DNA of 64,000 bases from assembly GCA_964646765.1 (NCBI GenBank), contig CAZYIA010000001.1, positions 274,105-338,104 on the forward strand. The letters run 5' to 3'. Below the pieces are notes generated by a model. It did not search any database, was not told the DNA's origin, and saw nothing but the letters and a program-made list of their open reading frames with translations. Position 1 is the stretch's first letter. Each line of letters begins with the position of its first letter. Position numbers and translations under genes: made by a program. Shown here piece by piece: positions 2,777 to 50,642 of the stretch. Origin of the DNA: an uncultured Candidatus Saccharibacteria bacterium (GTDB lineage: Bacteria; Patescibacteriota; Minisyncoccia; Phycocordibacterales; UBA9973).

Positions 2777-5578
2777 CTATTCGAGAATACTTTTTAAAAT
2801 ATCTTCAGGAACTTCTTTTGAAGCAGTAGACTCTTTTCGAGAAACATTAGATTCTGGAGAGGTTTCAGAAACTGACTCTGGTGATGAAGTTTCTTCCTTC
2901 GCTAATTCTTGCTCACGGGCTTTTCGCTCCTCTTCTAACTTCTTTTCTTGTTCTAAGGTTCGAGCTTCGGCTTCTTCTGCCGCCTTAAGAGCTTTTTGTT
3001 TTTCTTCTTGCTCAATTTTCACAGCCGCTTCAAGTCGGGCTTTTTCTTGCTGTTCTTTCCGAAGAGCTTCTTCATGGGCTACTTTGAGGGCTTCTGCTTC
3101 TCGTTTCCGTTCTTCTTCGGCCTTACGAACAACTTCTATTTCGAGTGCCTTCTTTTCTGCCTCAAATTTTTGACGCTCCTCTTCCTGCACTCGACGAACT
3201 TTTTCGAGAGCCTCCTGCTTTTCTTTTTCAATTTTTTCTTCAAGTGCTTTCTTTTCTGCCTCAATTCGTTCTTTTTCCTCTTTAGTTTTACGTTCCCGCT
3301 CTAGTGCTTCTTGCTTTTCGCGAAGAAGAGCCTCTTCTTGAGCTGTATGTTTTTCTTCATTAATGGTAGTGGTAGTTGGATCTTCACCACGTAGGACTGG
3401 ATCTATGTTTTTTGGTTCATTAAGTTCAGCTTCCTCGGCAAGTCCAATACCAGCTTGAGAAAGGGCTGTAGCCAGCGTATTTTTTGTTTCTTCTGCTGCT
3501 TCTTTCTTAGGAGTCATGAAAACAGGAGAAGCTACTGTTGGTGCATCTTTTTTAAGTGCAGAAAGCGATATTGTTTCTTGAGGCTTTTCAATAACTGGTT
3601 CAGCTATACCTTCTTGTTCTATCGGCTTTGTAGCAACTGCTGGCTTAGCTGGAGCGCCCATTGTTTTTGAAAGCGCTTGATTTAGGATACTTCGAAGTCC
3701 AGCGGTATCGGGAGCTTTACGTTCTTTTGTTACAGGAACTTTTACTACTCGAGGTGGCGGCGTGCGTGGAAGATCATCTTTTTTTGCTCCATCCGGAGTT
3801 TTTATACTCTGAGGCACTCGAAACGCCGTTTGCACTTGCGGTTGTATTTGTACTTGAGCTTCAGATGGCTTCTTATAAGCCCCTTTCGGTAATGGCATAT
3901 CATCTTTACCAGCCTTAATAACCCCAATAGGCGGCATATCAGGCCGATCTACCACGGGACGAACTTTTGGTCGTTCGCCAGTAGATCCTCCCCAATCACT
4001 CCTTGGTTTCGAAGAACCACCGGTAAATTCAATACCGAGCGCGGCAAGTGCATCGTATGAAATATTATCTTTCTTTTCTTTTGGTGGACGGAACCCTGGT
4101 GCCGGTTCAAGTTCACCTTGCTTAATTTTAAAAAGACATTCTTTACAATAAATTGGCAAACCTGGTTCTGGTTCAAACGGAACGTAAATGGATTTTTTAC
4201 AATTAGTACATTCAGCGCGATATTTGCCAACAGCTTCACTTCCCGCATTTTCTGGGTTACTGGTTCCTTGGCCAGGCACCGTTGAACTCCAACGGTTAAT
4301 TTCCTCCTCTACATCAGTGCGCGAACGAGTATACATGCGGCGTGAAGTATCAATAATATACTGTTCGGTTTCTTTTGATTCGTGCACCTCAAGTGGCGGC
4401 AAGGTTTTTGCTGAAAATGGTCGCGAGGTAACCCCATCCACCATGAGCTTTGCATAAATATGATAGTTCGGAAGGTTTACGAAATCTTCAATGACGAATT
4501 CCGGTTCAAATTCTTTTTCGAGTGCTTCGGCATCTTCTGCGCCAACACGGAAGATGATAATTGTTCCAACGTTACCAAACACGGCATCTTTCACCGCGCT
4601 ACCAGTTTCAGTTTCAAGCTGGGCAACATATTGATGCGCAATAGTAAGACATAAGCGATATTTTCGAGCTTCTGAAAGAATAGAAGCAAATGAATCGGTT
4701 ACGAAGTTTTGGAACTCGTCTACAAAAAGATAAAAGTCTTCACGCTTATTTTCTGGAATGCGCACACGCTCCATAGCGGAAAGCTGAATTTTGGTAATGA
4801 GCATTGCACCAAGAAGTGCTGAGTTATCTTCACCAATACGGCCTTTCGACACATTAACCAGAAAGATTTTTTTCTGGTTCATAATATCGAAAATGTTTAT
4901 AGTTGAACGCTGCTGGCCCACTACGTTACGTACGATATTTGATGAAAGGAATTGACCAACTTTGTTTTGAATCGGCGCAATAGCTTCATTACGAAACTGG
5001 TCACGCCATGCTTCATATTCGTGCACCCAAAAAGCCTTCACCACAGGGTCTTTCAAATTCCCGATGATGTACTGACGATAGTCCTTATCCACTAGCATAC
5101 GCGGAATACCAAGAAGTGTGGTATTAGGCGTATCGAGAAGCGCTAAAATGGTGTTGTTCAAAATATATTCCATTCGAGACGACCATGCGTTCGCCCAAAT
5201 TTTGGTGAAAATTCCCATCAAACCTGAAGCCACCAAGTGTTTATACTTCGGGTCATCAAGTTGCATTGGGTTAAAACCAATTGGAAAATCCGTATCCGCT
5301 GGATTGAGGTATACGACATCTTCTGCACGTTCTTTAGGAACAGCCGTTATGATTTTTTCTACGAGTTCACCGTGCGGATCTACCACACAAACACCTTCAC
5401 CGGTACGGATATTCTGGATAATCATGTTCTCCAGCATCACAGACTTACCGGTACCAGATTTACCAAGCACGTACATGTGCTGGCGTCGGTCTTTACGCTT
5501 AATGCCGAAAACTTGATCCATGCCACGGAAATGTGTCCGGGCAAAATATGTAATGTCCTGGTTTAGTGGAACTTCCAT
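2777..5578 (-). CDS. soluble VirD4/TraG/TraD-like (type IV coupling protein family) P-loop ATPase with long disordered/proline-rich linker, C-terminal CxxC...CxxC zinc ribbon and K/E-rich coiled-coil tail
   Basis: 933 aa; Walker A VLGKSGTGKS followed by VDPHGE (DPKGE-like motif of VirD4/TraG), Walker B YLFVDEFQNF, TIAHQYVAQL (TraG-D_C-like xQSxxQL region); no TM helices; zinc ribbon CTNCKKSIYVPFEPEPGLPIYCKEC encoded around 4125-4225; last ~190 aa are E/K/A/R-rich heptad-like low complexity. Confidence 0.7.
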   Translation of the reverse strand: MEVPLNQDITYFARTHFRGMDQVFGIKRKDRRQHMYVLGKSGTGKSVMLENMIIQNIRTGEGVCVVDPHGELVEKIITAVPKERAEDVVYLNPADTDFPIGFNPMQLDDPKYKHLVASGLMGIFTKIWANAWSSRMEYILNNTILALLDTPNTTLLGIPRMLVDKDYRQYIIGNLKDPVVKAFWVHEYEAWRDQFRNEAIAPIQNKVGQFLSSNIVRNVVGQQRSTINIFDIMNQKKIFLVNVSKGRIGEDNSALLGAMLITKIQLSAMERVRIPENKREDFYLFVDEFQNFVTDSFASILSEARKYRLCLTIAHQYVAQLETETGSAVKDAVFGNVGTIIIFRVGAEDAEALEKEFEPEFVIEDFVNLPNYHIYAKLMVDGVTSRPFSAKTLPPLEVHESKETEQYIIDTSRRMYTRSRTDVEEEINRWSSTVPGQGTSNPENAGSEAVGKYRAECTNCKKSIYVPFEPEPGLPIYCKECLFKIKQGELEPAPGFRPPKEKKDNISYDALAALGIEFTGGSSKPRSDWGGSTGERPKVRPVVDRPDMPPIGVIKAGKDDMPLPKGAYKKPSEAQVQIQPQVQTAFRVPQSIKTPDGAKKDDLPRTPPPRVVKVPVTKERKAPDTAGLRSILNQALSKTMGAPAKPAVATKPIEQEGIAEPVIEKPQETISLSALKKDAPTVASPVFMTPKKEAAEETKNTLATALSQAGIGLAEEAELNEPKNIDPVLRGEDPTTTTINEEKHTAQEEALLREKQEALERERKTKEEKERIEAEKKALEEKIEKEKQEALEKVRRVQEEERQKFEAEKKALEIEVVRKAEEERKREAEALKVAHEEALRKEQQEKARLEAAVKIEQEEKQKALKAAEEAEARTLEQEKKLEEERKAREQELAKEETSSPESVSETSPESNVSRKESTASKEVPEDILKSILE

Positions 5579-9782: not shown

Positions 9783-11246
9783 CTAGATTAGCGGCTCAGC
9801 GACTTCTACTTTTTCAGCAGGCGCTCCTCCACCATCAGATTTATTACCACGAGTAATAGCCGCTTTTTCTTGAGCAGAACGAATGATGGTTGCTTCTTCT
9901 TCGGCAATAAGTTTCTTGGCGGCGTCGGCTGAGATAGCAAATTTACGACGAGAAGCTTCAATAATTTTTGTGCGAAGTGATCCATGAGCAGCTGGCAATA
10001 CTTTCAACGTTTCAGCAGAAAATGGATCATATGATTCACCGTCGATAGTCATTTTAACGTAAAACTCTCCCACACCGAGGTTAATCATATCTTTTACATC
10101 GAAAATCGGAGCAAATTCTGGTTTGAGTTTTACGGCATCATCACCACCCACGCGGAAACAGATAATAGAACCAACGTTACCGAGCACGGCTTGAGCAACA
10201 CGTGGTGTCAGCTGACCAACGTATTGGTGCGCTACCGTAAGGTTAATAGAATATTTACGCGCCTCAGAAAGAATGTTTTCGAAAGTATCGGTCACCACGT
10301 TTTGGAACTCATCCACATAGAGATAAAAATCGTAGCGCTTGTCGTGTGGAATTTTTGCTCGCGCCATACCAGCTTGCTTAATTTTGGTCAGGAACATTGC
10401 ACCGAAGAACGAAGAGTTTTCTTCACCAATCTTACCCTTACAAATGTTGATGAGCACAATTTTTTTGTTGTTCATCAGCCATTCAATGTCAATTTTGTTT
10501 TCCTTCTGGCCGAAAATGTTACGGAGCATCGGATCAGAAAGAAATTGCCCGAGTTTGTTAACAAGCGGGATAATAGCGTCGGTATCAAATTTTTCCGACC
10601 AGTCGGCGAATTCGATTGCCCAGAAGCGCTTCACCATATCGTCTTCAATGTACTCAACCACTTTTTGACGATAGTTACGGTCGGTAAGCATCGAAATCAT
10701 TCCGCGCATGGTTGCGTATGGATAGTCGAGAAGCGCGAGTGTGGTAAAGCGGAACACGTGCTCAAGACGCGGCGTCCAGTTAGCACCGAATTGCTTTTCC
10801 AACACTTCAATCAAACCTTGGGTTAGTTGGTGTTTGAATGCGGGGTCAACGTTAGCGAGCGGATTAAATGAGGCCGGATAGTCCATGTCAGACGGATCGA
10901 TGATGCATACGTCTTCCATACGGTTCTCTGGAATAAAGTCGAGAATGTCATCAATAAATTCTCCGTGCGGGTCGATGACACAAATGCCGTGGCCATAGGC
11001 AACATCCTGGCGCACCATCAGTTCCTGGAGTTTTGATTTTCCCACACCAGACTTCCCTACAATGTAGAGGTGGCGGCGGCGGTCAACGCGTTTAATACCA
11101 AAAACGTATTTCTTTTCTTCGAGAGCGGCCACATAGTTGGTGCGGCCGATAAATGACGCGTCTTCTGGAGGCACTTTACCAAACTCCGGCAGTTCTGTCG
11201 GTGGCGGCGCGTATTTAATTATTTGAATCTTATTCGCTCGTGCCAT
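9783..11246 (-). CDS. soluble VirD4/TraG/TraD-like P-loop ATPase (paralog of 2777..5578 N-terminal 480 aa, no C-terminal extension)
   Basis: 487 aa; IVGKSGVGKS, IDPHGE, YLYVDEFQNV, TVAHQYVGQL, GNVGSIICFRVGGDD - same motif order and spacing as the 933-aa protein. Confidence 0.7.
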   Translation of the reverse strand: MARANKIQIIKYAPPPTELPEFGKVPPEDASFIGRTNYVAALEEKKYVFGIKRVDRRRHLYIVGKSGVGKSKLQELMVRQDVAYGHGICVIDPHGEFIDDILDFIPENRMEDVCIIDPSDMDYPASFNPLANVDPAFKHQLTQGLIEVLEKQFGANWTPRLEHVFRFTTLALLDYPYATMRGMISMLTDRNYRQKVVEYIEDDMVKRFWAIEFADWSEKFDTDAIIPLVNKLGQFLSDPMLRNIFGQKENKIDIEWLMNNKKIVLINICKGKIGEENSSFFGAMFLTKIKQAGMARAKIPHDKRYDFYLYVDEFQNVVTDTFENILSEARKYSINLTVAHQYVGQLTPRVAQAVLGNVGSIICFRVGGDDAVKLKPEFAPIFDVKDMINLGVGEFYVKMTIDGESYDPFSAETLKVLPAAHGSLRTKIIEASRRKFAISADAAKKLIAEEEATIIRSAQEKAAITRGNKSDGGGAPAEKVEVAEPLI

Positions 11247-12596: not shown

Positions 12597-13670
12597 TTAG
12601 GTTACTTCATGCGCAGTTCCTGCTATGCGCAGTGGTAATCCATCCGCGCCATACGATAGTTCGGCAATAAGTTTAAGAGGGTGTGAACCTGAAGCAGTCG
12701 TAAATGTAACTGTCTGCATCCACTCTTTATCTTGACGATCAGCAGCTCGCTCAAGGCTACGACGAAATTCTATACGATCCGCCTCCTGCATAGCTGATTC
12801 AAATGCGTCTCGGGTAAGTCGAACATCCTTTTTAATCCCGGTAAGTTGATACATTTTTTCATCAAAGGATAATTCCTGCGTCTTTGGGATAAGGGTCCAA
12901 GTGGCAACACGCGCCCGATCAAGTGTTCCCTGAAGATATTCACGTTGGTGCTCAAGTGTCGTCGCTCGTTTTTTAAAGATTGAAAGCAAGTCAGATGAAC
13001 GGCGTAAATATAAACCAGCAAAAGTAAAAAGGATCGCCAGAAGGACGCCAATACTTATGATGGAAATTTTAATGAAACGAAGTTCTGCCTGCCATCTCGT
13101 AGCATCAACGTCCATACCCACAATTGCAATAATTGAATTATTGGCGTCACGCACCGGAGCGTATGCCGAAACCCAAGTTCCCCAACTATCTTTATATGGT
13201 CCTTCCGTGAAAGGAACTCCCTTATTGTAGTTGATAAATTGAAGTGACGATGTGTCTTCATATACTTGGCCAGGTGGAGAGTAGTCAGGACTCGAAGGAT
13301 CTTCCGAGTCGACATAGAAAAAAAGTTTCGAACCATTAGAACCCATGAGATACACAAACCGCGCGTCGGTATTTATGGTTCGCAGGTCACGCATAACCTG
13401 TTTTAGATGAATGTATTCTTTTTTCTCGGTATCAGAATATGCACCATCAAGTGCAGCAATTTCTTTTGATGGCACTAGATACGCTGCAGTTTGTACACGA
13501 GTGAGTAATCGTTCGCGAGAAGTTGCATCAGCTTTGGTAGAAACACTAAACGCAATAACAATGCTTGCTACAAGCACCGCTATACCGACGATGAAAAAAG
13601 TTGTTGACCATACTCCAGCGCCTGATTCGTGAGAACTAGTTGAGGGTACTTCGGGACTGGTATACGACAT
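12597..13670 (-). CDS. membrane sensor-domain protein (extracytoplasmic Cache-like domain between two TM helices, then PAS-like segment; no kinase/output domain)
   Basis: 357 aa; TM1 FFIVGIAVLVASIVIAF, TM2 ISIISIGVLLAILFTFAGLYL; periplasmic region resembles Cache/dCache; C-terminal ~110 aa PAS-like; ends without HisKA/HATPase. Confidence 0.4.
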   Translation of the reverse strand: MSYTSPEVPSTSSHESGAGVWSTTFFIVGIAVLVASIVIAFSVSTKADATSRERLLTRVQTAAYLVPSKEIAALDGAYSDTEKKEYIHLKQVMRDLRTINTDARFVYLMGSNGSKLFFYVDSEDPSSPDYSPPGQVYEDTSSLQFINYNKGVPFTEGPYKDSWGTWVSAYAPVRDANNSIIAIVGMDVDATRWQAELRFIKISIISIGVLLAILFTFAGLYLRRSSDLLSIFKKRATTLEHQREYLQGTLDRARVATWTLIPKTQELSFDEKMYQLTGIKKDVRLTRDAFESAMQEADRIEFRRSLERAADRQDKEWMQTVTFTTASGSHPLKLIAELSYGADGLPLRIAGTAHEVT

Positions 13671-13768
13671 AATGGGCTTTAGTATACCCTAGGGAGCAAA
13701 TGGAAGCATGTGGAGAAAACACGCCACAACTACAGCATAAAAGACCTGGTAATAAACTTTTTAGAGAG

Positions 13769-13839
13769 TCGGGGTGCCGAGAATCGAACTCGGTTCTCAC
13801 GAACCCGAATCGTGCATACTACCGGTGTACTACACCCCG
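13769..13839 (-). tRNA. tRNA-Pro (anticodon CGG)
   Basis: Manual fold: acceptor CGGGGUG/CACCCCG with C1:G72 (typical bacterial tRNA-Pro), U8A9, D-stem GUAC/GUAU, anticodon stem CACGA/UCGUG, loop UUCGGGU, T-arm CCGAG-UUCGAUU-CUCGG, discriminator A. Confidence 0.8.
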
Positions 13840-13944
13840 AGACGAAGAGGAGAATACCACATTTCATGTATTTTATCAGCTGAAATTGTCGTCAGGGATA
13901 TTTTCTGTCTTTGTGGTCACAAATATTTTTCCTGACGGAAAAAT

Positions 13945-14048
13945 TTCGCGACCCCGGCTCGCGGTTTTTGCCTTTCGCTACGCTCAAACAAAAACATCGT
14001 TCCGCCTTCCACATGTACGCAAAAATCCCCAGTAGTGGGGATTTTTGG
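13945..14048. repeat. conserved tRNA-flanking element copy A (approx. 100 nt, two hairpins; possible sRNA or tRNA 3' trailer); ends in hairpin 14021..14046
   Basis: Homologous to 15116..15200 and 22322..22414: shared 5' ttcgcgaccccgg hairpin and 3' ..tcCG.CtTCCAC....C-AAAAA-TCCCCA-gtag-TGGGGA-TTTTT; lies 7 nt from 3' end of tRNA-Ala(UGC). Confidence 0.55.
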
Positions 14049-14053
14049 TCATG

Positions 14054-14126
14054 TGGACCCTAGCGGATTCGAACCGCTGACCTCCTCTTTGCAAAAGAGG
14101 CGCTCTACCAACTAAGCTAAGGGCCC
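14054..14126 (-). tRNA. tRNA-Ala (anticodon UGC)
   Basis: Manual fold: acceptor GGGCCCU/AGGGUCC with G3:U70 Ala identity pair, D-stem GCUU/GAGC, anticodon stem CCUCU/AGAGG loop UUUGCAA, T-arm AGCGG-UUCGAAU-CCGCU, discriminator A. Confidence 0.85.
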
Positions 14127-14196
14127 AAATAAAGTTGTACGGGTATCTAAATGTATTCTCCTGAACTTTTTTGTTAGTAGAGCGCCTACGGCGGCT

Positions 14197-14226
14197 TTCC
14201 TCTCTACTTGCCAACTAAGCTAAGGG
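14197..14226 (-). repeat. duplicated 5' fragment of tRNA-Ala(UGC) (acceptor 5' strand + D-arm), tRNA remnant
   Basis: ccaactaagctaagggcccaaat is an exact copy of 14108..14130; downstream part diverges and includes an inverted copy of the anticodon-stem region (gtagagcgcc). Confidence 0.6.
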
Positions 14227-14317
14227 CCCAAATGAAGCTCTAACGGCACTATAGTACCGCATTTCGGCTATTTCGCAAGTATTTTTGGCATATTTTATGG
14301 TAAGCTAATGCATCAGT

Positions 14318-15016
14318 ATGAAGAACCTAGAGCCAAATTCAGGGAAACAGCTCACTATTAACGTACAAGGAATAAACTACGCCCGTTTTCCAGTTAAAAC
14401 TCCTGTCATTAAAAGTGGTGATGATGTTGCTGCTATTCTTAAAAATCTTGTATACAGTGAACTTCAACCTGGCGACACCCTTTTCATCAGCGAAAAAATT
14501 ATCGCTATTTCTCAAGGCCGAGCGTTTAAAATTTCGGATATTCATCCGAGTGCCTTGGCTAACTTTCTGGTTCGATTCGTACATAAATCCAAGTATGGCA
14601 TTGGCTTAGGCTCACCCTGGACAATGGAGCTCGCTCTACGTGATGTTGGTGCTCCACGAATTTTATTTGCTGCCTTTTGTGCTGCTTTAACAAAACCATT
14701 TGGTATAAAAGGAGTTTTCTATCATGTAGCTGGAAAGGATGTAAATGCAATTGATGGCCCATGCGACTATACCCTTCCACCATATAATGAGTACGCAAAA
14801 CTTGGACCCAAAAAACCTAACGAAGAAGCAAAAAAGATCTCAGGTGCGCTTAATGTACCAGTTGTTATCATTGATGCCAACGACCTTGGGGTAAACATTC
14901 TTGGCCGATCATCAAAAGAAATATCTCTTGATTGGGCAAAAGCAATCTTCAAAGACAACCCACTTGGCCAGGCTTCACAACAAACCCCTGCAGCAATCGT
15001 TAGAAAAACAAAATAG
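14318..15016 (+). CDS. CofE/F420-0:gamma-glutamyl ligase-like family protein
   Basis: 232 aa; TLFISEKIIAISQGRA and GIGLGSPW segments resemble the F420-ligase (PF01996-type) fold; assignment from memory of family pattern only. Confidence 0.4.
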   Translation: MKNLEPNSGKQLTINVQGINYARFPVKTPVIKSGDDVAAILKNLVYSELQPGDTLFISEKIIAISQGRAFKISDIHPSALANFLVRFVHKSKYGIGLGSPWTMELALRDVGAPRILFAAFCAALTKPFGIKGVFYHVAGKDVNAIDGPCDYTLPPYNEYAKLGPKKPNEEAKKISGALNVPVVIIDANDLGVNILGRSSKEISLDWAKAIFKDNPLGQASQQTPAAIVRKTK

Positions 15017-15018
15017 TT

Positions 15019-15032
15019 GACCGCACCGGACT
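15019..15032. repeat. 14-nt direct repeat of the 3' end of tRNA-Ala(GGC) (gaccgcaccggact = 15210..15223)
   Basis: Exact 14-nt match 190 bp from the tRNA 3' end, immediately after the stop of the CofE-like gene. Confidence 0.55.
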
Positions 15033-15115
15033 TTCTGCCTACCGCAGAATCGTGTATCACGAATCACTAAGCATAATTCTTCTCCGTCAGTCGACAGATC
15101 GAATTCTGCAAAGTG

Positions 15116-15200
15116 TTCGCGACCCCGCCTCGTCTGTCGCATTGCGACATGGCTCCGGCCTCCACAAGTATCAAAAAATCCCAAGCAGTTGGGATTTTTC
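15116..15200. repeat. conserved tRNA-flanking element copy B; ends in hairpin 15173..15199
   Basis: ttcgcgaccccgcctcg...ctCCGGCCTCCACaagtatc-AAAAAA-TCCCAA-gcag-TTGGGA-TTTTT; 8 nt from 3' end of tRNA-Ala(GGC). Confidence 0.55.
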
Positions 15201-15207
15201 TCTCTAG

Positions 15208-15280
15208 TGGACCGCACCGGACTTGAACCGGTCACCTCTCCCATGCCATGGGAACGCTCTACCAGATGAGCTAGCGGCCC
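15208..15280 (-). tRNA. tRNA-Ala (anticodon GGC)
   Basis: Manual fold: acceptor GGGCCGC/GCGGUCC with G3:U70, D-stem GCUC/GAGC, anticodon stem UUCCC/GGGAG loop AUGGCAU, T-arm ACCGG-UUCAAGU-CCGGU, discriminator A. Confidence 0.8.
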
Positions 15281-15325
15281 GAAATGTCGGGACAATGTAA
15301 CACGAAACACTTATTTTGGAAAAGG

Positions 15326-16210
15326 TTATCCTTTCACCAAATCAATTGCGTGTTTTAAAAACTCAGGCATTTTTGAACCAACCGCTTCAAGAGCAATTGG
15401 CATATAGCGCAAAGGGTGCAGTAGTGGATTTGATTCAATCGCACCAACATGAATACCATCTTTTGCGCGAGTAAAATGAATACTCGTCAGATGTTTTAAC
15501 CCAAGTGTTATATACAGTTCCTTTGCTCGAGCAGTAATTTCTCGAGCATCAACTCCTCCAAGTAAACGGGGTTTTACAAAAGTGTACCCAGAAAAACTAT
15601 ACGAACCTAACACAACCGGCGGAAAAGCATACGGATGTTCACCACGAAATGTATCAGTCACTAAAACCGCAATATCCTCGCCAAAAGCTAAGGATTCAAT
15701 TGTTCCTCCACTTACCTTCTGAAAATGAAGTGCAAACAACCTTGCTAGCTCTTCTCGTGTTTTCACTGTTTTAAATGGCAGCGACTGACCAGGTAAGCGA
15801 ATAAGCCATGGTGGTGGCAATTTTTGCGAAACTATACCAGCCATATTTTCAATCGAAGTAACCTCTGGATTGCGCATCAAATCAGCAATGAGTATCGTTT
15901 TTGGCGTCTGATGAAAGTGTGGCATTACTCCCGAAACAACGGGTAAACCAATTTCACTGAATGAAAATAGCCCAGTATGTTGTGGGGCTGATAAGAGCGA
16001 CAACAGCACATCTACCGAAGAAACAATATCACCGGCATTTACCTCTTTTCCTCGAATGTGCCAAACTCCGTCACGAGTTATCAAAATATCTATGCCCTGG
16101 TGCGAATGCGCTAAGTCATTTTGAACAAGATTCAGCACGTACGAACCTGCTTCAAGAGAATGAAAATATTCCGGACCTGTTCCACCACGAATAATGCCAA
16201 CGCGAATCAT
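15326..16210 (-). CDS. ddl: D-alanine--D-alanine ligase family protein (ATP-grasp)
   Basis: 294 aa; N-terminus MIRVGIIRGGTGPEYFHSLEAGSYVL matches Ddl N-domain pattern (G-I-x-x-GG-x-S-x-E-x-x-x-SL-x-SG); short for Ddl. Confidence 0.5.
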   Translation of the reverse strand: MIRVGIIRGGTGPEYFHSLEAGSYVLNLVQNDLAHSHQGIDILITRDGVWHIRGKEVNAGDIVSSVDVLLSLLSAPQHTGLFSFSEIGLPVVSGVMPHFHQTPKTILIADLMRNPEVTSIENMAGIVSQKLPPPWLIRLPGQSLPFKTVKTREELARLFALHFQKVSGGTIESLAFGEDIAVLVTDTFRGEHPYAFPPVVLGSYSFSGYTFVKPRLLGGVDAREITARAKELYITLGLKHLTSIHFTRAKDGIHVGAIESNPLLHPLRYMPIALEAVGSKMPEFLKHAIDLVKG

Positions 16211-16249: not shown

Positions 16250-17491
16250 CTATTTAAGAAAAGCCTGGCCGCGTTTCTTTTTATGGAACGTAATTGCAAA
16301 ACGGTGTGCTTCGGCATTTGCTAAAATAATCGCCTTTTGCTGTTTAGTACTAAATTCTGTAAGCCCTAATATTTCTCGCGGTTTATGATGTTCATCTTTC
16401 ACTACTGAAACGACTGGAATAGTGAGCTGAAATCGCTTAAGCACCTGCTCACCTACTCGCTTTTGAGCTACACCACCATCCATCACAACAATATCTGGCA
16501 TTCCCCACTCACTATGGCGAAAACGGCGAGAGAGAACTTCTTCAAGTGCCCCAACATCATTACTCTTTTCTTGGCTTTGGATAATAAATTTTCGATACTC
16601 TGCTTTATCAATTTCTCCGTCCGTGATTACCGTCATAACACCAACCATGTTTTTGCCGCTCATGTGTGCAATATCGTAGGCCTCGATACGAATATGCGCT
16701 GTGCGAGGATCACGAAAATTTTCATTTTTAATGAGTGCTGTATCGTTAATATGCTTGAGAGCAAAAATTTGGTCTCGAACACGAGCAGCCTCCTCAAACC
16801 GATGTTCTTTTGAAAACGATTTCATATCTCGCTCGAGTGTTCGAACAATATTCCCTTTTTTGCCAGAAAAAAATAATTTCAGATTACGAATATTTTTTCG
16901 GTACGCCTTTACCGCTTCTTCATTTGAGATGTCAGGATTGAGCCCAACTTGGCGATAAAATTCATAATTGTCTTGGCGAGCCGACTGACCATCCATAAAT
17001 GGGAAAATACGGCGAATAATTTTTATCGCTTCTTTAAACTGCCCACCAGAAGTAAATGGACCATACACAGTATCTATTTCAACGTGCTCAAGCGATTCAG
17101 GTACAATTCCTTCTTCATATTTTTCTAAGTCACGACCACGAACAGTAAGGACTCGGGGTAATTCTTCTTTTGTAATGACAATATAATTCCAGCTCTTATC
17201 ATCTTTTTCTTTAACGTTGTAATACGGCAAATGACGCTTGATGAGCGCTGCTTCGAGAATAAGAGCTTCGAGTACCGTTTCAGTTTCTTGCCACTCAATT
17301 TTCGTAGCCTTAAATACCATGTCCACGATCATTGGTCCGCGAGTGTTAATAAGGTCGCTGGCAAAATAACTCCGTGTACGCTCACGAAGCGACGTTGCTT
17401 TTCCAATATACAGAATCTCCTTCCCTTTTTTGAAGAAGTACACACCTGGTACATTAGGAAGTTTACATTTTGCGAGCTGTTCTATCGTCAC
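16250..17491 (-). CDS. uvrC: excinuclease ABC subunit C, short form (GIY-YIG + RNase H-like endonuclease domains, no C-terminal HhH)
   Basis: 413 aa; GIY-YIG block GVYFFKKGKEILYIGKATSLRERTRSYF at N-terminus; C-terminal PDIVVMDGGVAQKRV...IPVVSVVKDEHHK matches UvrC endonuclease domain. Confidence 0.65.
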   Translation of the reverse strand: MTIEQLAKCKLPNVPGVYFFKKGKEILYIGKATSLRERTRSYFASDLINTRGPMIVDMVFKATKIEWQETETVLEALILEAALIKRHLPYYNVKEKDDKSWNYIVITKEELPRVLTVRGRDLEKYEEGIVPESLEHVEIDTVYGPFTSGGQFKEAIKIIRRIFPFMDGQSARQDNYEFYRQVGLNPDISNEEAVKAYRKNIRNLKLFFSGKKGNIVRTLERDMKSFSKEHRFEEAARVRDQIFALKHINDTALIKNENFRDPRTAHIRIEAYDIAHMSGKNMVGVMTVITDGEIDKAEYRKFIIQSQEKSNDVGALEEVLSRRFRHSEWGMPDIVVMDGGVAQKRVGEQVLKRFQLTIPVVSVVKDEHHKPREILGLTEFSTKQQKAIILANAEAHRFAITFHKKKRGQAFLK

Positions 17492-18741: not shown

Positions 18742-21363
18742 TTATTTTCGGAGAACTTTTTTAAGATATTTTCCTGTGTGGCTCTTCGGATTATTTGCCA
18801 CTTCCTCCGGTGTTCCATGTGCTACCAATTTACCACCGCCAACACCACCTTCTGGACCAATGTCGATGAGGTAGTCGGAGCATTTAATGATATCCATGTT
18901 GTGCTCAATCAATACGACACTGTTTCCTTTGCCTACGAGCATCTGAAGCACTTCTAAAAGCTTTGCAACGTCATCGTAGTGTAAACCTACTGTTGGCTCG
19001 TCTAAAAGATACATCGTTTTTTCGATATGCGTTCGATACAGTTCAGATGAAATTTTAACACGCTGTGCTTCCCCACCCGAGAGCGTGGTAGCACTTTGGC
19101 CAAGCTCCAAATACCCTAAGCCAACATCATCAAGGGTTTTTAAACGGTCATAAATAGCTGGAATATCCTCAAAGAATTTTAGTGCTTCTTCAACTGTTGT
19201 TTTGAGCACTTCGTAAATATTCTTTTTCTTATACTTTACCGCAAGGGTTTCTTTGTCGAAGCGCTTACCGCGACATACATCACAAGTAACATACACGGTT
19301 GGCAAAAAGTGCATTTCAACTGCAATTTCACCATTTCCTTCACACGCCTCACAGCGGCCACCTTTCACGTTGAATGAAAAACGATTTGATTTCCAACCGC
19401 GAATACGAGCTTCCTCGGTAGCTGCAAAAAGGTCACGAATATGCGAAAAAGCACCGGTATAGGTAGCAATATTTGAGCGTGGTGTACGGCCAATCGGCGA
19501 CTGATCGATCAAAATAGCCCGTGAAAGATACTCGGAACCAGTAAACGTTGCGCAGTTAAATGTTTGGTTCGAACGATACCGGCGATCAAATCGGGCTTCC
19601 AAATTCTTGTGCAAGATTTCATACATGAAAGAGCTCTTACCGCTACCTGAAACACCAGTAATGGTAACTAAGCGACCGAGCGGCACTGTAACATTCATGT
19701 TTTTAATATTGAAGACACTACCATTCACAATTTTGACAGCTCCTTTATCTTTACTGCGGCGTTCATCTGGTACAGCAATTTTTTCTTCGCCACGAAGATA
19801 CGCGAGTGTACGTGAACCGCTCGGGTTTTTCTTCGCAGTCAACAGATCATCAAGATACCCTGAAGCAATTACATTACCACCATGAACACCTGCTTTCGGA
19901 CCAATATCAATAATATAGTCAGAGGCGTAAATAGTATCTTCATCGTGTTCAACGACTAAGATAGTATTGCCAAGATCACGGAGATTCAAAAGCGTTTCAA
20001 TCAAACGTTCGTTATCACGCTGGTGAAGCCCAATCGTTGGTTCATCGAGCACATACAGTGCTCCCACAAGTCGTGAACCCAGTTGTGAAGCTAAACGAAT
20101 GCGTTGCGCTTCCCCACCCGAGAGCGTATTAGCTCTTCGATCAAGTGTTAAATATTCCAAACCAACATCGAGCATAAACACCAACCGAGCTTCAATTTCT
20201 TTCAAAACTGGCAGCGAAATATCTTTATCCTTTGGAGAAAATTTCAGGTTGGTCGTGAAAGCATGCGCGGTAGCAATACTCTGTGCAGCAAATTCAACAA
20301 TATTTTTTCGCTCCGTTCCGGTGCCGATAAATACATTTAAAGCTTCAGTTCGCAAGCGAGCTCCTTTACAAGTAGGACATGCTTCGTCACCAAAAAAATG
20401 CTTGGTGCCTAAACCATTACATTCAGAACAGGCACCATAGGGTGAATTGAACGAAAAGAGTCGCGGCTCAATTTCTGGAAATGAAAAACCATCGTTTGGG
20501 CAAGCAAACTTTGCCGAGAGCAAAAATTCTTCACTGCCATCAAACGACACAATAACTAAACCATCAGCCTCATGGAGAGCTCGTTCCACCGATTCAGCAA
20601 GTCGCATACGAGCAGCCTCAGGGCTGTTCTTAAATTCTTCTACCAAAAATTCATCTACGAGTACTTCAATGTTGTGCGCTTTTGTTTTTGAAAGCTCAAT
20701 ACGGTCACGAAGACTCATCATCTTGCCATCAACGCGAACATGCGTAAAACCTTTACCAAGAAGATCATATAGCAACTGATAGTATTCACCTTTTCGTCCA
20801 CGAACTAATGGCGCGTATACATGCACTCGCGCATCTACCCAAGTAACTCCGAGAACTGTTTTCTTTTTAGAAATTTTAATGCGTTCATCTGCCTTTTCAA
20901 GGACAAACGAAACAATTTCTTCGTTCGATAGTTTTTTAATCTCCGTACCGCATACTGGACAAACGGCCTTTCCCACACGAGCGTAGAGCACACGAAGATA
21001 GTCGTAAATTTCGGTAATGGTTGCGACTGTTGAACGTGGATTATTTGAGCGAGATTTTTGGTCGATAGAAATCGCCGGAGAAAGTCCAGTGATTTCGTCC
21101 ACATCAGGCTTTGGCATCTGATTTAAGAACTGACGAGCATACGCTGAAAGTGACTCAACATACCGACGCTGACCTTCAGCAAAAATGGTATCAAAAGCAA
21201 GCGAGCTTTTACCTGAACCTGACATACCAGTAATAACCACCATTTTATTGCGTGGCATTTCAACCGTAATGTTTTTGAGATTATGCGTTCGAGCACCGCG
21301 AACGATGATTTCTTCTTGTTGTTTATGGGTTTTATGAGACATAGCTATATGACGCAAACTCAC
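18742..21363 (-). CDS. uvrA: excinuclease ABC subunit A
   Basis: 873 aa; [11 protein letters not shown]..., two ABC ATPase modules ([14 protein letters not shown]; GVSGSGKSS), LSGGEAQR signatures, zinc-finger CxxC pairs. Confidence 0.9.
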
Positions 21364-22188: not shown

Positions 22189-22321
22189 TGGTTTAGTGTA
22201 GCATTTGAGCTCATAAGTTAATAAGTAAAATTCTACAGGAAGACGCGCTCTACGGTCACTGACACTTTTCCATCACTAAACTTGTGAGCCATAATAATTT
22301 GCTCGCCGTCGCTCACAAATT

Positions 22322-22414
22322 TTCCAGCCCCGGACTCAGCTGTTTTTCTTGCTAGAAAAACATGCTTCCGTCTTCACTGCACAGCAAAAAATCCCCAGCA
22401 GTGGGGATTTTTTG
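22322..22414. repeat. conserved tRNA-flanking element copy C; ends in hairpin 22386..22413
   Basis: ttccagccccggactcagctgtttttc...aaaaacatgctTCCGTCTTCACtgcacagc-AAAAAA-TCCCCA-gcag-TGGGGA-TTTTTT; 7 nt from 3' end of tRNA-Glu. Confidence 0.55.
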
Positions 22415-22420
22415 TGGCAG

Positions 22421-22492
22421 TGACCCTACGGGGAGTCGAACCCCGGTTAACGGATTGAGAACCCGCTGTCCTAACCACTAGACGATAGGGCC
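22421..22492 (-). tRNA. tRNA-Glu (anticodon CUC)
   Basis: Manual fold: acceptor GGCCCUA/UAGGGUC, D-arm GUCU-AGUGGUUA-GGAC (Glu/Gln-type), anticodon stem GCGGG/UCCGU loop UUCUCAA, T-arm CGGGG-UUCGACU-CCCCG, discriminator A. Confidence 0.75.
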
Positions 22493-49249: not shown

Positions 49250-50470
49250 CTACAAATAAAAGACAATCTGATCGAGCGTGAGTATTACCTGAAGCGCACG
49301 GGGGAGCGTATATGTGTCACCTGGTGCATAGCCATGTCCCACGGTATGACGTGAAGCACCCGCTGCTTCCGGTGCGTTGGGATCAAAGTTCGGATACGCC
49401 ACCTTCAAGAGATACTCAAGGAATTCTGATGGAAAGAATAACGATGCTTCGCTACCCGCTTTCCTTATTCCCTTATCGACAGCGTGTTGAAGTAGTGCCT
49501 CCGTCTTCGCTGTCGATCCCTTCTCAGCCAAGTGGACATCCGCGAGTACGCCCTCAATCTCTGTCATTATATTTTTTATCGCAGAAACAGAGTCCCCTTT
49601 CTTGAACGCATCCAATCCGGCCTGTAGCACGGTCTTGTGCTTGGCGAGCGACGGGTTTCTCCACCAACGTTCTGCGAGTCGATCTATACGTTCAGGAGTG
49701 AATCTAGCTACCAATTCCTTTTCCTTTGTCTCAATATCAAACTCATCCCGATACGCCTTTATGAGCGGATCGAAATCGCCTCCGAGAACTTCGATAAATG
49801 GAAACCATCCTGCCTTGGTCATGCGTTCCACCGTCGCTTCATCCGCAAGTGCCTCATACATCGCTTGGTAGCGCAGACGTTTGTAGAGTGTCGCCAAGTC
49901 GCGCTCCATTCGATCCATATCCAGCTCACCACTAAGGTCGAAGAACATTCCAAACTTCCACCCGATCTTGAAGCAAGCTACGATCTTATCTGAGGGATCA
50001 AGGGTCAAGGCGTGATACTTCATTCGGCGAATATCACCGATATCTCCTCCGTAAACAGCCTCGCCGGCTTGGATATTACGTTTTGTAAGTATCTCGATTG
50101 CACGGCCTGCTCCGTCCAAATGAAGTTCACCTGTGCCGTCCTTATGGATAACGAGCACGAACTCGACGAATGAATCAATGGAAAGGATTACTCCAGCCTC
50201 TTTCGCTCTCTCGATAATAATATTGCTGATTTGTTCCATATACATATGGAACTCTCGCTCGTCGGATGTCAGATATGCACGAACAAGGACAGGAACCAAT
50301 TCCTTTTTTCCTGCAGGAGTGTTTGTGGTGGCGAATCCTACCAATGGCGGCAGACCATTGAGCTTGACTACATCGGCGCGCTTGGGCACATAAGTTACGC
50401 CTGCCGAGATAATCTGCTTCGGCCTATTATATGGAACATATTGCTTCTTTTTTCTTCTGTGCTTACCCAT
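49250..50470 (-). CDS. hypothetical protein, compositionally atypical (GC ~50-60% vs ~35-42% flanks)
   Basis: 406 aa; basic N-terminus MGKHRRKKKQYVPYNRPK; no recognisable domain; adjacent to tRNA-Gln. Confidence 0.5.
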   Translation of the reverse strand: MGKHRRKKKQYVPYNRPKQIISAGVTYVPKRADVVKLNGLPPLVGFATTNTPAGKKELVPVLVRAYLTSDEREFHMYMEQISNIIIERAKEAGVILSIDSFVEFVLVIHKDGTGELHLDGAGRAIEILTKRNIQAGEAVYGGDIGDIRRMKYHALTLDPSDKIVACFKIGWKFGMFFDLSGELDMDRMERDLATLYKRLRYQAMYEALADEATVERMTKAGWFPFIEVLGGDFDPLIKAYRDEFDIETKEKELVARFTPERIDRLAERWWRNPSLAKHKTVLQAGLDAFKKGDSVSAIKNIMTEIEGVLADVHLAEKGSTAKTEALLQHAVDKGIRKAGSEASLFFPSEFLEYLLKVAYPNFDPNAPEAAGASRHTVGHGYAPGDTYTLPRALQVILTLDQIVFYL

Positions 50471-50571
50471 GGATGAAACTTAAAAAAATAGATGCACCTC
50501 AGCAGCTCGAACTGGGAAAAGCTAACAATGAAAAGACAAAAGAGCTATCTAATGAAGTTTGTCTATCTCTG

Positions 50572-50642
50572 CTGGGAGACTAGGAATCGAACCTAGATTA
50601 AAGGATTCAAAGTCCTCTGTCCTACCGTTAGACGATCTCCCA
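50572..50642 (-). tRNA. tRNA-Gln (anticodon UUG)
   Basis: Manual fold: acceptor UGGGAGA/UCUCCCA with U1:A72 and G73 (bacterial Gln identity), D-arm GUCU-AACGGUA-GGAC, anticodon stem GAGGA/UCCUU loop CUUUGAA, T-arm CUAGG-UUCGAUU-CCUAG. Confidence 0.8.

Follow-up and report, generated by a model that had tools for sequence, protein, structure and literature searches.

Three of the five transfer RNA (tRNA) genes in a stretch of DNA from an uncultured Candidatus Saccharibacteria bacterium are followed on their 3' side by closely similar sequences, which raises the question of what these sequences are: small RNA genes, terminators, parts of the tRNA transcripts, or insertions. The stretch, referred to here as the window, comprises 64,000 nucleotides (nt) of contig CAZYIA010000001.1 (assembly GCA_964646765.1, positions 274,105 to 338,104) and has a G+C content of about 42%. 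A first-pass annotation, made from the letters alone, had offered two readings, i.e., a plus-strand small RNA (sRNA) of about 100 nt that runs convergently into the tRNA, or a conserved trailer and terminator on the minus strand. It is shown here that all three are members of an uncatalogued family of small non-coding elements that is widespread in the Patescibacteria (the Candidate Phyla Radiation, CPR). In the interpretation preferred here, to which we give about an even chance, the family is a small non-autonomous element that inserts at tRNA genes in the orientation of the tRNA and is transcribed as a structured tRNA trailer, with a function and a means of movement that we infer.

The three copies in the window

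As the first-pass annotation had placed them, the copies lie 3' of the genes for tRNA-Ala-UGC, tRNA-Ala-GGC and tRNA-Glu-CUC, and their differing flanking genes speak against a recent segmental duplication. The near-identical hairpin that it had described close to the tRNA was found again, each hairpin end lying 7-8 nt from the tRNA 3' end. The hairpin AAAAATCCCCAG(T/C)AGTGGGGATTTTT is present at 14021-14046 and 22387-22412, and a compensated variant, AAAAATCCCAAGCAGTTGGGATTTTT, with the double change CCCAA...TTGGG, at 15174-15199. These three are the only plus-strand matches in the 64 kb, with 0 expected by chance; the core ACATnnYTCCGnCYTC, at a fixed spacing to the hairpin, likewise occurs exactly three times against 0 expected, so that the conservation is indeed not a chance effect. 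The proposed length of about 90-105 nt proved too short. In the alignment, conservation runs some 40-50 nt further on the plus-strand 5' side, and the conserved unit measures about 150 nt per copy (about 13907-14057, 15034/15047-15211 and 22278-22423) and holds three hairpins, H1, H2 and H3.

In what follows, w1-w3 stand for window copies 1-3, and L with a number for related loci in other contigs. The last four nucleotides of a tRNA are nt 70-73, and tRNA-sense means the minus strand of the window. The parts of the three copies are listed below with their tRNA genes; lengths of stems are in base pairs (bp).

14053-14126, minus strand: tRNA-Ala-UGC gene, nt 70-73 of which (14057-14054) are predicted to pair into H1 of copy 1
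14008-14057, minus strand: H1 of copy 1, consisting of tRNA nt 70-73, the trailer CAUGACC, A5, UCCCCA-CUAC-UGGGGA, U5 and the complementary GCGUACAUGUGGA
13955-14004, minus strand: H2 of copy 1, with a 3-bp base GGC:GCC, a GGA/GA internal loop, a 3-bp helix and an AU bulge, and in its upper part a U/A-rich stem and a long apical insert
13915-13953, minus strand: H3 of copy 1, with the base GGUCGCG/UGUGACC containing two G·U pairs, an AU-rich stem and the loop GUCA, followed by ACAAAG
13885-13904, minus strand: a second, degenerate box like the 3' strand of H3 (tRNA-sense AAAAUAUCCCUGACGACAAU), just past copy 1, read from the sequence
15207-15280, minus strand: tRNA-Ala-GGC gene, nt 70-73 predicted to pair into H1 of copy 2
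15161-15211, minus strand: H1 of copy 2, inner stem UCCCAA/UUGGGA, a compensated change relative to copies 1 and 3
15127-15159, minus strand: H2 of copy 2, a minimal form in which the stem GUCGC/GCGAC replaces U5/A5
15050-15125 (approximate), minus strand: H3 of copy 2, a long 'type II' form also present in L048, L074, L120 and L035
22420-22492, minus strand: tRNA-Glu-CUC gene, nt 70-73 predicted to pair into H1 of copy 3
22374-22423, minus strand: H1 of copy 3
22329-22372 (approximate), minus strand: H2 of copy 3, with the base GAC:GUC and the loop AGCA
22286-22330, minus strand: H3 of copy 3, with U·G/G·U pairs in its base and the loop region GAGCGACGGCGAG

A family behind many tRNA genes

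The same element was found 3' of at least 11 tRNA species at other loci, in at least 20 other Patescibacteria contigs. Its partners include tRNA-Arg-CCU, Gly-UCC, Val-UAC, Val-GAC, Tyr, Glu-CUC, Lys-UUU, Lys-CUU, Ala-UGC, Ala-GGC and Ile-UAU, and a tRNA with a UUA anticodon; the host metagenome-assembled genomes (MAGs) are labelled Nomurabacteria, Paceibacterota, Saccharibacteria or Patescibacteria group. The tRNA with the UUA anticodon (L105:6777-6850, in a Paceibacterota MAG) would read UAA according to ARAGORN, and scores as a normal tRNA in Rfam (70 bits). A covariance model built from 20 copies recovers 24 full-length members with 66-147 bits, some of which have another hairpin stem and the same loop. 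The conserved core of the family is about 135-160 nt long; inserts whose limits can be recognised measure 150-230 nt. Exact copies occur only in short Logan contigs.

No family of Rfam 15 matches the element: at the gathering threshold the window gives tRNAs only, with E-values up to 10 the region 13700-15400 gives only chance matches far below threshold, and in 11 related loci the matches are tRNAs, ribosomal RNA (rRNA), a group I intron and LOOT, all away from the element. The intron interrupts the 3' part of a 16S rRNA gene (L129:3387-4266, Rfam Intron_gpI, 53.8 bits), in keeping with the reported abundance of such introns in Patescibacteria, and the LOOT RNA (RF03000, 89 bits) lies at L001:6671-6793 in a Nomurabacteria MAG and is unrelated to the element. 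A literature search gave no description of the element; closest in subject is a paper on group I introns within tRNA genes of Patescibacteria (PMC13011429).

The hairpin taken by itself is unspecific, because its pattern with a free loop (AAAATCCCMANNNNTKGGGATTTT) matches at least 120 loci in species-representative genomes, many of them in Flavobacteria and other AT-rich bacteria. Among these matches, 12 hairpins lie 3-12 nt 3' of a tRNA, and 9 of the 12 have the whole element; a narrower pattern led to 13 metagenome contigs. Ordinary bidirectional terminators that are alike by chance or local duplication would account for so common a motif, and also for L095, where a hairpin stands behind tRNA-Ala without the rest of the element. 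This explanation can be regarded as already refuted by the conserved unit of about 150 nt, whose three hairpins covary across more than 20 unrelated contigs, by the 0 matches expected in the window and by the differing flanking genes. The L095 hairpin itself (4839-4862, behind a Paceibacterota tRNA-Ala-UGC) is an exact copy of the inner hairpin of copy 1, UCCCCA-CUAC-UGGGGA, with its A and U tracts and without H2 and H3, and a convergent open reading frame (ORF) ends 25 nt from it.

Most tRNAs lack the element. All five tRNA genes of the window lie on the minus strand without an encoded CCA (ARAGORN and Rfam), and three of them carry it; elsewhere the fraction is about 4 of 22 among tRNAs that did not serve to find their locus. 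At element-holding loci, 19 of 38 tRNAs carry it, a figure biased by how the loci were found. Whether every tRNA has the element, a check that the first-pass annotation had proposed, is thus answered in the negative within the window itself by two genes:

13768-13839, minus strand: tRNA-Pro-CGG gene (ARAGORN/Rfam), without element
50571-50642, minus strand: tRNA-Gln-UUG gene (ARAGORN/Rfam), without element

The element is not required by tRNAs in general. Where it is present, it is usually the final item of the tRNA unit.

Three hairpins in tRNA-sense

Comparative modelling shows that the element folds into three hairpins on the tRNA-sense strand, in the order tRNA, H1, 'AG', H2, 'GG(G)', H3 and 'ACAA(A/G)'. 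The first-pass annotation had proposed that homologues be collected and searched for covariation, and both homologues and covariation were found. In the model-fitted alignment, 95.9% of the cells are paired and 18 of the 23 pairs show double changes (RNAalifold and pair counting). An independent MAFFT alignment in tRNA-sense gave 38 pairs, 94.5% of cells paired and double changes in 31 of the 38; none of 500 shuffles folded as well, and slid controls were 38-46% paired.

H1 is built from tRNA nt 70-73, the trailer (typically CAAGAC), a tract of A4-7, a stem of 5-7 bp, the loop CUGC, a tract of U4-7 and, as the closing strand, a segment complementary to nt 70-73 and the trailer. The median length of H1 is 24 bp, and the whole hairpin folds with about -30 kcal/mol; its loop is invariant, apart from CUAC in copy 1. 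The inner GC hairpin alone is far weaker, with a median of -6.1 kcal/mol and -1.9 in L091b. H2 stands on a base of 3 bp, the middle pair of which is C-G in 9, A-U in 8 and G-C in 4 sequences, and above this base follow an internal loop (5'-GGA/5'-GA), a helix of 3 bp that covaries and is almost free in sequence, a bulged AU, a stem that varies (U5/A5 in most copies, elsewhere GUCGC/GCGAC or UGCC/GGCA) and the loop AGYA. The base of H3 measures 7 bp and reads GGUCGCG/UGUGACC (GGCUGCGG/CUGCAGCC in L124); its stem is rich in A and U, and its loop is GACG or GUCA. The far end of the element, 'TTGTGGTCAC', is the 3' strand of H3. Boxes like this 3' strand are duplicated in L130, L091 and L136, as next to copy 1.

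This fold reassigns two parts that the first-pass annotation had set apart. What it had read on the plus strand as a 'GC-rich 5' hairpin plus T-run' is no terminator but the place where H2 and H3 meet; the T-run pairs with AAAAAC of the core as the stem of H2 and is replaced in copy 2 by GTCGC/GCGAC. Its 'core' is conserved, as stated, without being a separate unit: it contains the other strand of H2, the bulge, the internal loop, the basal helix and the tRNA-complementary segment.

Other structures were considered and rejected. A closing helix between the far end and the tRNA-mimic segment has no cognate specificity (-7.3 kcal/mol within a copy vs -7.5 across copies), and a kissing interaction between the loops of H1 and H2 is unsupported in the subtype of copy 1. 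Hammerhead (CUGANGA/GAAA), hepatitis delta virus (HDV)-like, hatchet, group I P1-like, T-box and K-turn motifs gave no Rfam match, and key positions of their consensus fail on inspection. A small minus-strand ORF, with a GGAGG-N7-AUG look-alike, has AUA for AUG in L039 and L111 and stops after three codons in copy 3.

H3 also contains promoter-like sequence. In copy 3, the segment 22291-22318 (minus strand) reads as a sigma70-like TTGTGA-16-TATTAT that faces the TspO gene 100 nt downstream, and type I H3 at other loci reads TTGCGA-16-TATT(G/C)(T/C). Judged by these motifs, the element may supply a promoter to the next gene.

The structured strand

Several lines of evidence, i.e., G·U bias, the wobble pairs of H3, covariation and ORF spacing, indicate that the structured strand is the tRNA strand. 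When H2 was folded per copy on both strands, 17 G·U pairs were counted in tRNA-sense vs 3 in plus sense, and the tRNA-sense fold was the more stable in 20 of 23 copies. One base pair of H3 varies between G·U (16 sequences), U·G (6) and G-C (1); read on the plus strand, the conserved wobbles of H3 become A·C mismatches. With identical extents, the tRNA-sense consensus has 38 pairs and -33.5 kcal/mol (covariation term -8.4), and the plus-sense consensus 21 pairs and -27.3 kcal/mol (covariation term -4.3), without H3. In w2, L074 and L132, only 9-31 nt separate the element from the end of a plus-strand ORF, which would leave no room for a separate plus-strand promoter. A search for sigma70-like sites gave none that was consistent for a plus-strand unit, although promoter rules for the CPR are not established.

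This result disfavours a convergent plus-strand sRNA. An independent transcript of about 100 nt, with two stem-loops and a U-run, would profit from the hairpin between A- and T-tracts, which could terminate plus-strand transcripts too, and the plus strand is C-rich and G-poor with CCUCC-like stretches. Yet the covariation and wobble pattern favour the opposite strand, H3 has no plus-strand fold, the supposed T-run is a strand of a stem, no consistent promoter was found, and plus-strand ORFs end close upstream in three loci, so that such an sRNA is highly improbable. The other proposal of the first-pass annotation, the minus-strand trailer and terminator, chose the strand that is nearer the truth and was incomplete: it did not include the unit of about 150 nt, its three hairpins, the weakness of the GC hairpin or the insertion repeats described below.

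Pairing with the tRNA end

The segment beside the hairpin is complementary to the last 4 nt of the adjacent tRNA and to the trailer, which makes the hairpin the centre of a helix of about 24 bp. According to the models, the outer pairs of H1 join nt 70-73 and the trailer to a segment that varies with the tRNA. The eight outer pairs covary with tRNA identity (one of them, e.g., is UA in 10, CG in 9, GC in 2 and AU in 1), and cognate duplexes average -14.5 kcal/mol vs -9.2 for non-cognate ones, the cognates ranking first or near first. The conserved 'AG' and the base of H2 come directly after the tRNA-complementary segment.

A segment that follows its tRNA so closely might be a functional guide in either of two ways: (1) as a fold of RNA or single-stranded DNA (ssDNA) that chooses tRNA 3' ends as insertion targets, i.e., a gene-less, nucleic-acid-guided mini mobile element, or (2) as part of a co-transcribed three-hairpin RNA that directs or catalyses cleavage at the tRNA 3' end, an RNA-guided or ribozyme-assisted maturation in genome-reduced CPR. 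We regard a guide function of either kind as unlikely.

The same structural data would also be expected of a vertically inherited host module, a structured trailer of certain tRNA units that acts in cis on 3'-end formation. It could do so by termination, as an RNase III-type site of about 24 bp, or by offering junctions of a stem with A-CAA(G/A) to RNase Z at the ends of the tRNA and of H3. Such a module would explain why the structure is on the tRNA-sense strand, why in individual folds the pairing reaches nt 70-73 in most copies and tracks tRNA identity, why nt 70 and the loop are separated by a narrow range of distances (21-29 nt, median 25), and why the tetraloops are conserved; the ends of the tRNA and of H3 both have the form 'helix-A-CAA(G/A)', and the usual place of the element at the end of the tRNA unit fits as well.

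Footprints of insertion

At each locus, 400 nt beyond H3 were searched with the 3' part of the locus's own tRNA, and matches were assessed by a shuffle test. A second copy of the segment from T-loop to 3' end was found beyond H3 in 7 of 21 loci. In w2, L111, L120, L136, L105 and L131 the shuffle p was at most 0.01; the displaced tRNA-Glu 3' end in L125 had a p of 0.135, the query there being a non-tRNA flank, and was accepted by inspection. Every repeat starts within the T-loop, at about positions 53-60, and extends for 9-20 nt in the direction of nt 73. The second repeat lies 3-135 nt past H3 and is followed by a different trailer or terminator, e.g., a U-tract in w2 and an ordinary, full terminator hairpin in L125. 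L111 and L125 share GUACUCAUGG immediately before it. In the window, the repeats at copy 2 are:

15205-15224, minus strand: direct repeat 1, the tRNA-Ala(GGC) segment from T-loop to 3' end with 3 trailer nt, tRNA-sense AAGUCCGGUGCGGUCCACUA
15014-15033, minus strand: direct repeat 2, the displaced tRNA-Ala(GGC) 3' segment, 19 of 20 nt identical, followed by the U-rich tract UUUUGUUUUU

Direct repeat 2 overlaps the stop codon of the convergent ORF 14318-15016.

Insertion at the T-loop with a replacement tRNA 3' end and a displaced repeat is the footprint of tRNA-targeting integrative elements. Because direct repeats of the tRNA 3' segment flank the unit, the simplest reading of these loci is that an ancestral tRNA with a plain trailer would have received a unit of 150-230 nt at its T-loop, together with the unit's own tRNA 3' end. 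Other features are consistent with movement or recombination. There are tandem copies (L130, L035), truncated ones (L091a, L035a; in L095 the hairpin only), the duplicated boxes, and copies without a tRNA (L125, L134); in L134, a Glu-type copy adjoins only the last 4-5 nt of tRNA-Glu in otherwise unrelated DNA. Subtypes of the element are not tied to tRNA identity and are common to different tRNAs in different genomes, and the Glu-type element is 85-91% identical between contigs with flanks that are about 57% identical.

For the host module, these footprints are hard to accommodate. It would treat the tRNA-fragment repeats as incidental scars, and the T-loop-anchored repeats in the 7 loci are left unexplained by it. 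A minority of tRNAs carry the element, and tRNAs would function without it, because ancestral trailers with ordinary terminators survive beyond the repeat. Copies also remain where the tRNA is gone (L125, L134), and the element is more conserved than the adjoining tRNA. A host module is considered unlikely, and insertion at the tRNA gene is preferred.

A number of results weigh against insertion, or at least do not support it. Fourteen of the 21 loci have no second tRNA repeat in the available sequence, and for window copies 1 and 3 none was found anywhere in the window. ORFs neighbouring the window copies have no recombinase domain (Pfam, PHROGs), and five repeat-bounded inserts have no terminal inverted repeats (p 0.15-0.97). 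No copy was found in phage or viral collections (BLAST; hairpin match in viral contigs). An empty orthologous site was not recovered via TspO homologues, because the neighbourhoods of the TspO relatives are not syntenic. The taxonomy of several MAGs is as deposited. Palindrome correction against a constrained arm could by itself have produced the pairing of nt 70-73, which would then not be a contact under selection. Finally, folded ssDNA with G·T pairs would account equally well for the strand-specific G·U pairs.

The last point leads to a further alternative, in which the element is a folded ssDNA recombination substrate and the 4-8 nt complementary to the tRNA end are the guide that chooses the insertion target. 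Strand-specific ssDNA hairpins are known from integron attC sites, the attP of CTX phage and the ends of IS200/IS605. Since G·T wobbles are tolerated in such hairpins, the strand evidence cannot separate RNA from ssDNA; an internal segment that is complementary to the flanking target and varies with it, the L134 copy beside a mere tRNA remnant, and the tandem and truncated copies would all fit. Yet H1 is unlike H3 in sequence and shape and does not follow the left-end/right-end pattern of IS200/IS605, and R''/R' boxes of the attC type were not seen. Palindromic elements derived from IS200/IS605 (PATEs) or REPs would be expected to have similar subterminal hairpins at both ends, together with a TnpA or RAYT gene in the same genome. 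No HUH or tyrosine recombinase is encoded nearby (Pfam and PHROGs on neighbouring ORFs), a target of 4 nt would not by itself restrict insertion to tRNA ends, and tRNA repeats of 9-20 nt from the T-loop fit the double-strand crossover of a tyrosine integrase better. An ssDNA substrate is thus judged improbable.

Two candidate links to mobile DNA were dropped: the ORFs 12597-13670, 15326-16210 and 49250-50470, inspected as possible integrase genes beside the tRNAs, have no recognisable domains, and a match of the core pattern that pointed to a phage (L142) is a chance match in high-GC sequence, with no model match and no tRNA.

Further rearrangements of tRNA genes were observed. At 14210-14229 (minus strand), 83 nt upstream of the intact gene, there is a 20-nt copy of the 5' end of tRNA-Ala-UGC (GGGCCCUUAGCUUAGUUGGC, 1 mismatch), after which come CAAG and a hairpin, GUAGAG...CUCUAC. 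Being a direct repeat 5' of the gene, this copy suggests that the tRNA underwent a second small insertion or replacement event. In L129 (1839-2466), an intact tRNA-Ile-GAU gene lies between a 3' half-copy and a 5' fragment of 19 nt of the same tRNA. A full element stands behind the 3' half, and behind the 5' fragment a miniature element-like unit with a short hairpin, a minimal H2 and H3. The locus is heavily rearranged.

How the element may work

If the element inserts at tRNA genes, as preferred here, the unit would enter at the T-loop and bring a replacement tRNA 3' end and, because it has no recombinase gene of its own, would be moved by a recombinase in trans. Once in place, it would be transcribed as a 3' trailer of the tRNA, as there would be no room for a promoter, whenever the polymerase reads through the inner hairpin of H1; such read-through is plausible because this hairpin is weak compared with the whole of H1. 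The duplex of about 24 bp may then serve as a bidirectional terminator, which would be useful between convergent genes, as at copy 2, and it may also, or alternatively, mark the tRNA 3' end for double-strand-specific processing. Selection on the RNA would keep H2 and H3 folded, including the conserved loops, the tandem G·A-type internal loop and the G·U pair, possibly as a protein-binding or processing module.

Other features of the region

ORFs with ATPase domains of TraG/TrwB-type type IV coupling proteins and treble-clef zinc fingers lie at 2777-5578 and 9783-11246 (minus strand), downstream and on the same strand of the tRNA-Ala/tRNA-Pro cluster; the region may be conjugative or island-like, or else represent a set like a type IV secretion system that is typical of CPR. 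UvrC-like (16250-17491, 413 amino acids) and UvrA-like (18742-21363, 873 amino acids) ORFs on the minus strand encode proteins that are shorter than is usual in bacteria. An F420-ligase-like ORF in the window, together with the missing CCA of the tRNA genes, would have suited an archaeon; this origin was rejected, because the tRNAs are of bacterial type by sequence and the TspO homologues carry CPR names. Homologues of TspO, the gene beside copy 3, reach 79% identity, several being named Magasanikbacteria, Moraniibacteriota or Pacebacteria, and its relatives sit by genes for DpnI, a Schlafen-like helicase or MazG-like proteins.

Significance and comparison with known systems

The CPR makes up a large, mostly uncultured share of bacterial diversity with tiny genomes, and to our knowledge almost no non-coding RNA or mobile-element biology has been characterised in it. 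A structured element that spans lineages at one exact tRNA position would offer a new handle on how CPR tRNA transcripts end and mature and, as a mini integrative element without genes, on DNA movement between these organisms; it would also account for the tRNA-fragment debris around CPR tRNA genes. With a covariance model of the family, CPR genomes would be better annotated and tRNA loci prone to recombination could be recognised. Should the tRNA-complementary segment prove to be a guide, the family would be a very compact case of nucleic-acid-guided targeting.

Four kinds of known systems resemble the element in part. First, tRNA-targeting integrative elements, i.e., genomic islands, integrative and mobilizable elements (IMEs) and cis-mobilizable elements (CIMEs), share the insertion at the T-loop, the replacement tRNA 3' end, the displaced direct repeat and tandem arrays. 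An att-type direct repeat brackets the insert in 7 of the 21 loci of the family. In contrast to such elements, the unit has only 150-230 nt, without any ORF, encoded integrase or cargo, lies at more than 10 tRNA species, and combines a strongly conserved fold of three hairpins on one strand with a segment that can pair with the tRNA end; a large parent element was not found.

Second, repeats like miniature inverted-repeat transposable elements (MITEs), such as ERIC, REP/BIME, Correia and RUP, are likewise short, non-coding, multi-copy, hairpin-rich and located at gene 3' ends. They become part of the neighbouring gene's transcript, in which they can bring about termination or serve for processing. 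Unlike them, the present family lies strictly at tRNA nt 73/74 in one orientation and is conserved across distant lineages. It has no terminal inverted repeats, and its flanks are tRNA segments of 9-20 nt instead of short target-site duplications of fixed length.

Third, all copies have a GC-containing stem of 5-7 bp between tracts of A4-7 and U4-7 on both strands, and hence the stem-loop and U-tract of a Rho-independent bidirectional terminator, 7-8 nt after the tRNA. The differences are a weak GC hairpin with an invariant loop and a covarying stem, its place inside a helix of about 24 bp that includes tRNA nucleotides, and about 100 nt of further conserved structure after H1.

Fourth, tRNA-linked non-coding RNAs also consist of a structured RNA directly 3' of the tRNA, in the same orientation and without a promoter of its own. 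They include the plant dicistrons of tRNA and small nucleolar RNA, the tRNA-microRNA-encoded RNAs (TMERs) of murine gammaherpesvirus 68 (MHV68), MALAT1-mascRNA, and 3'ETS-leuZ of E. coli. These examples are eukaryotic, viral or enterobacterial, and the MHV68 TMERs, in which a pre-microRNA follows the tRNA, have a long hairpin directly after it. We know of none among them that pairs with the acceptor end of the tRNA or is flanked by repeats of tRNA segments.

The element thus falls outside every Rfam family, the MITEs and the autonomous integrative elements. By analogy, it is most like a miniature, gene-less tRNA-integrating island of the CIME kind, which at the RNA level resembles transcribed intergenic repeats and tRNA-linked hairpin RNAs.

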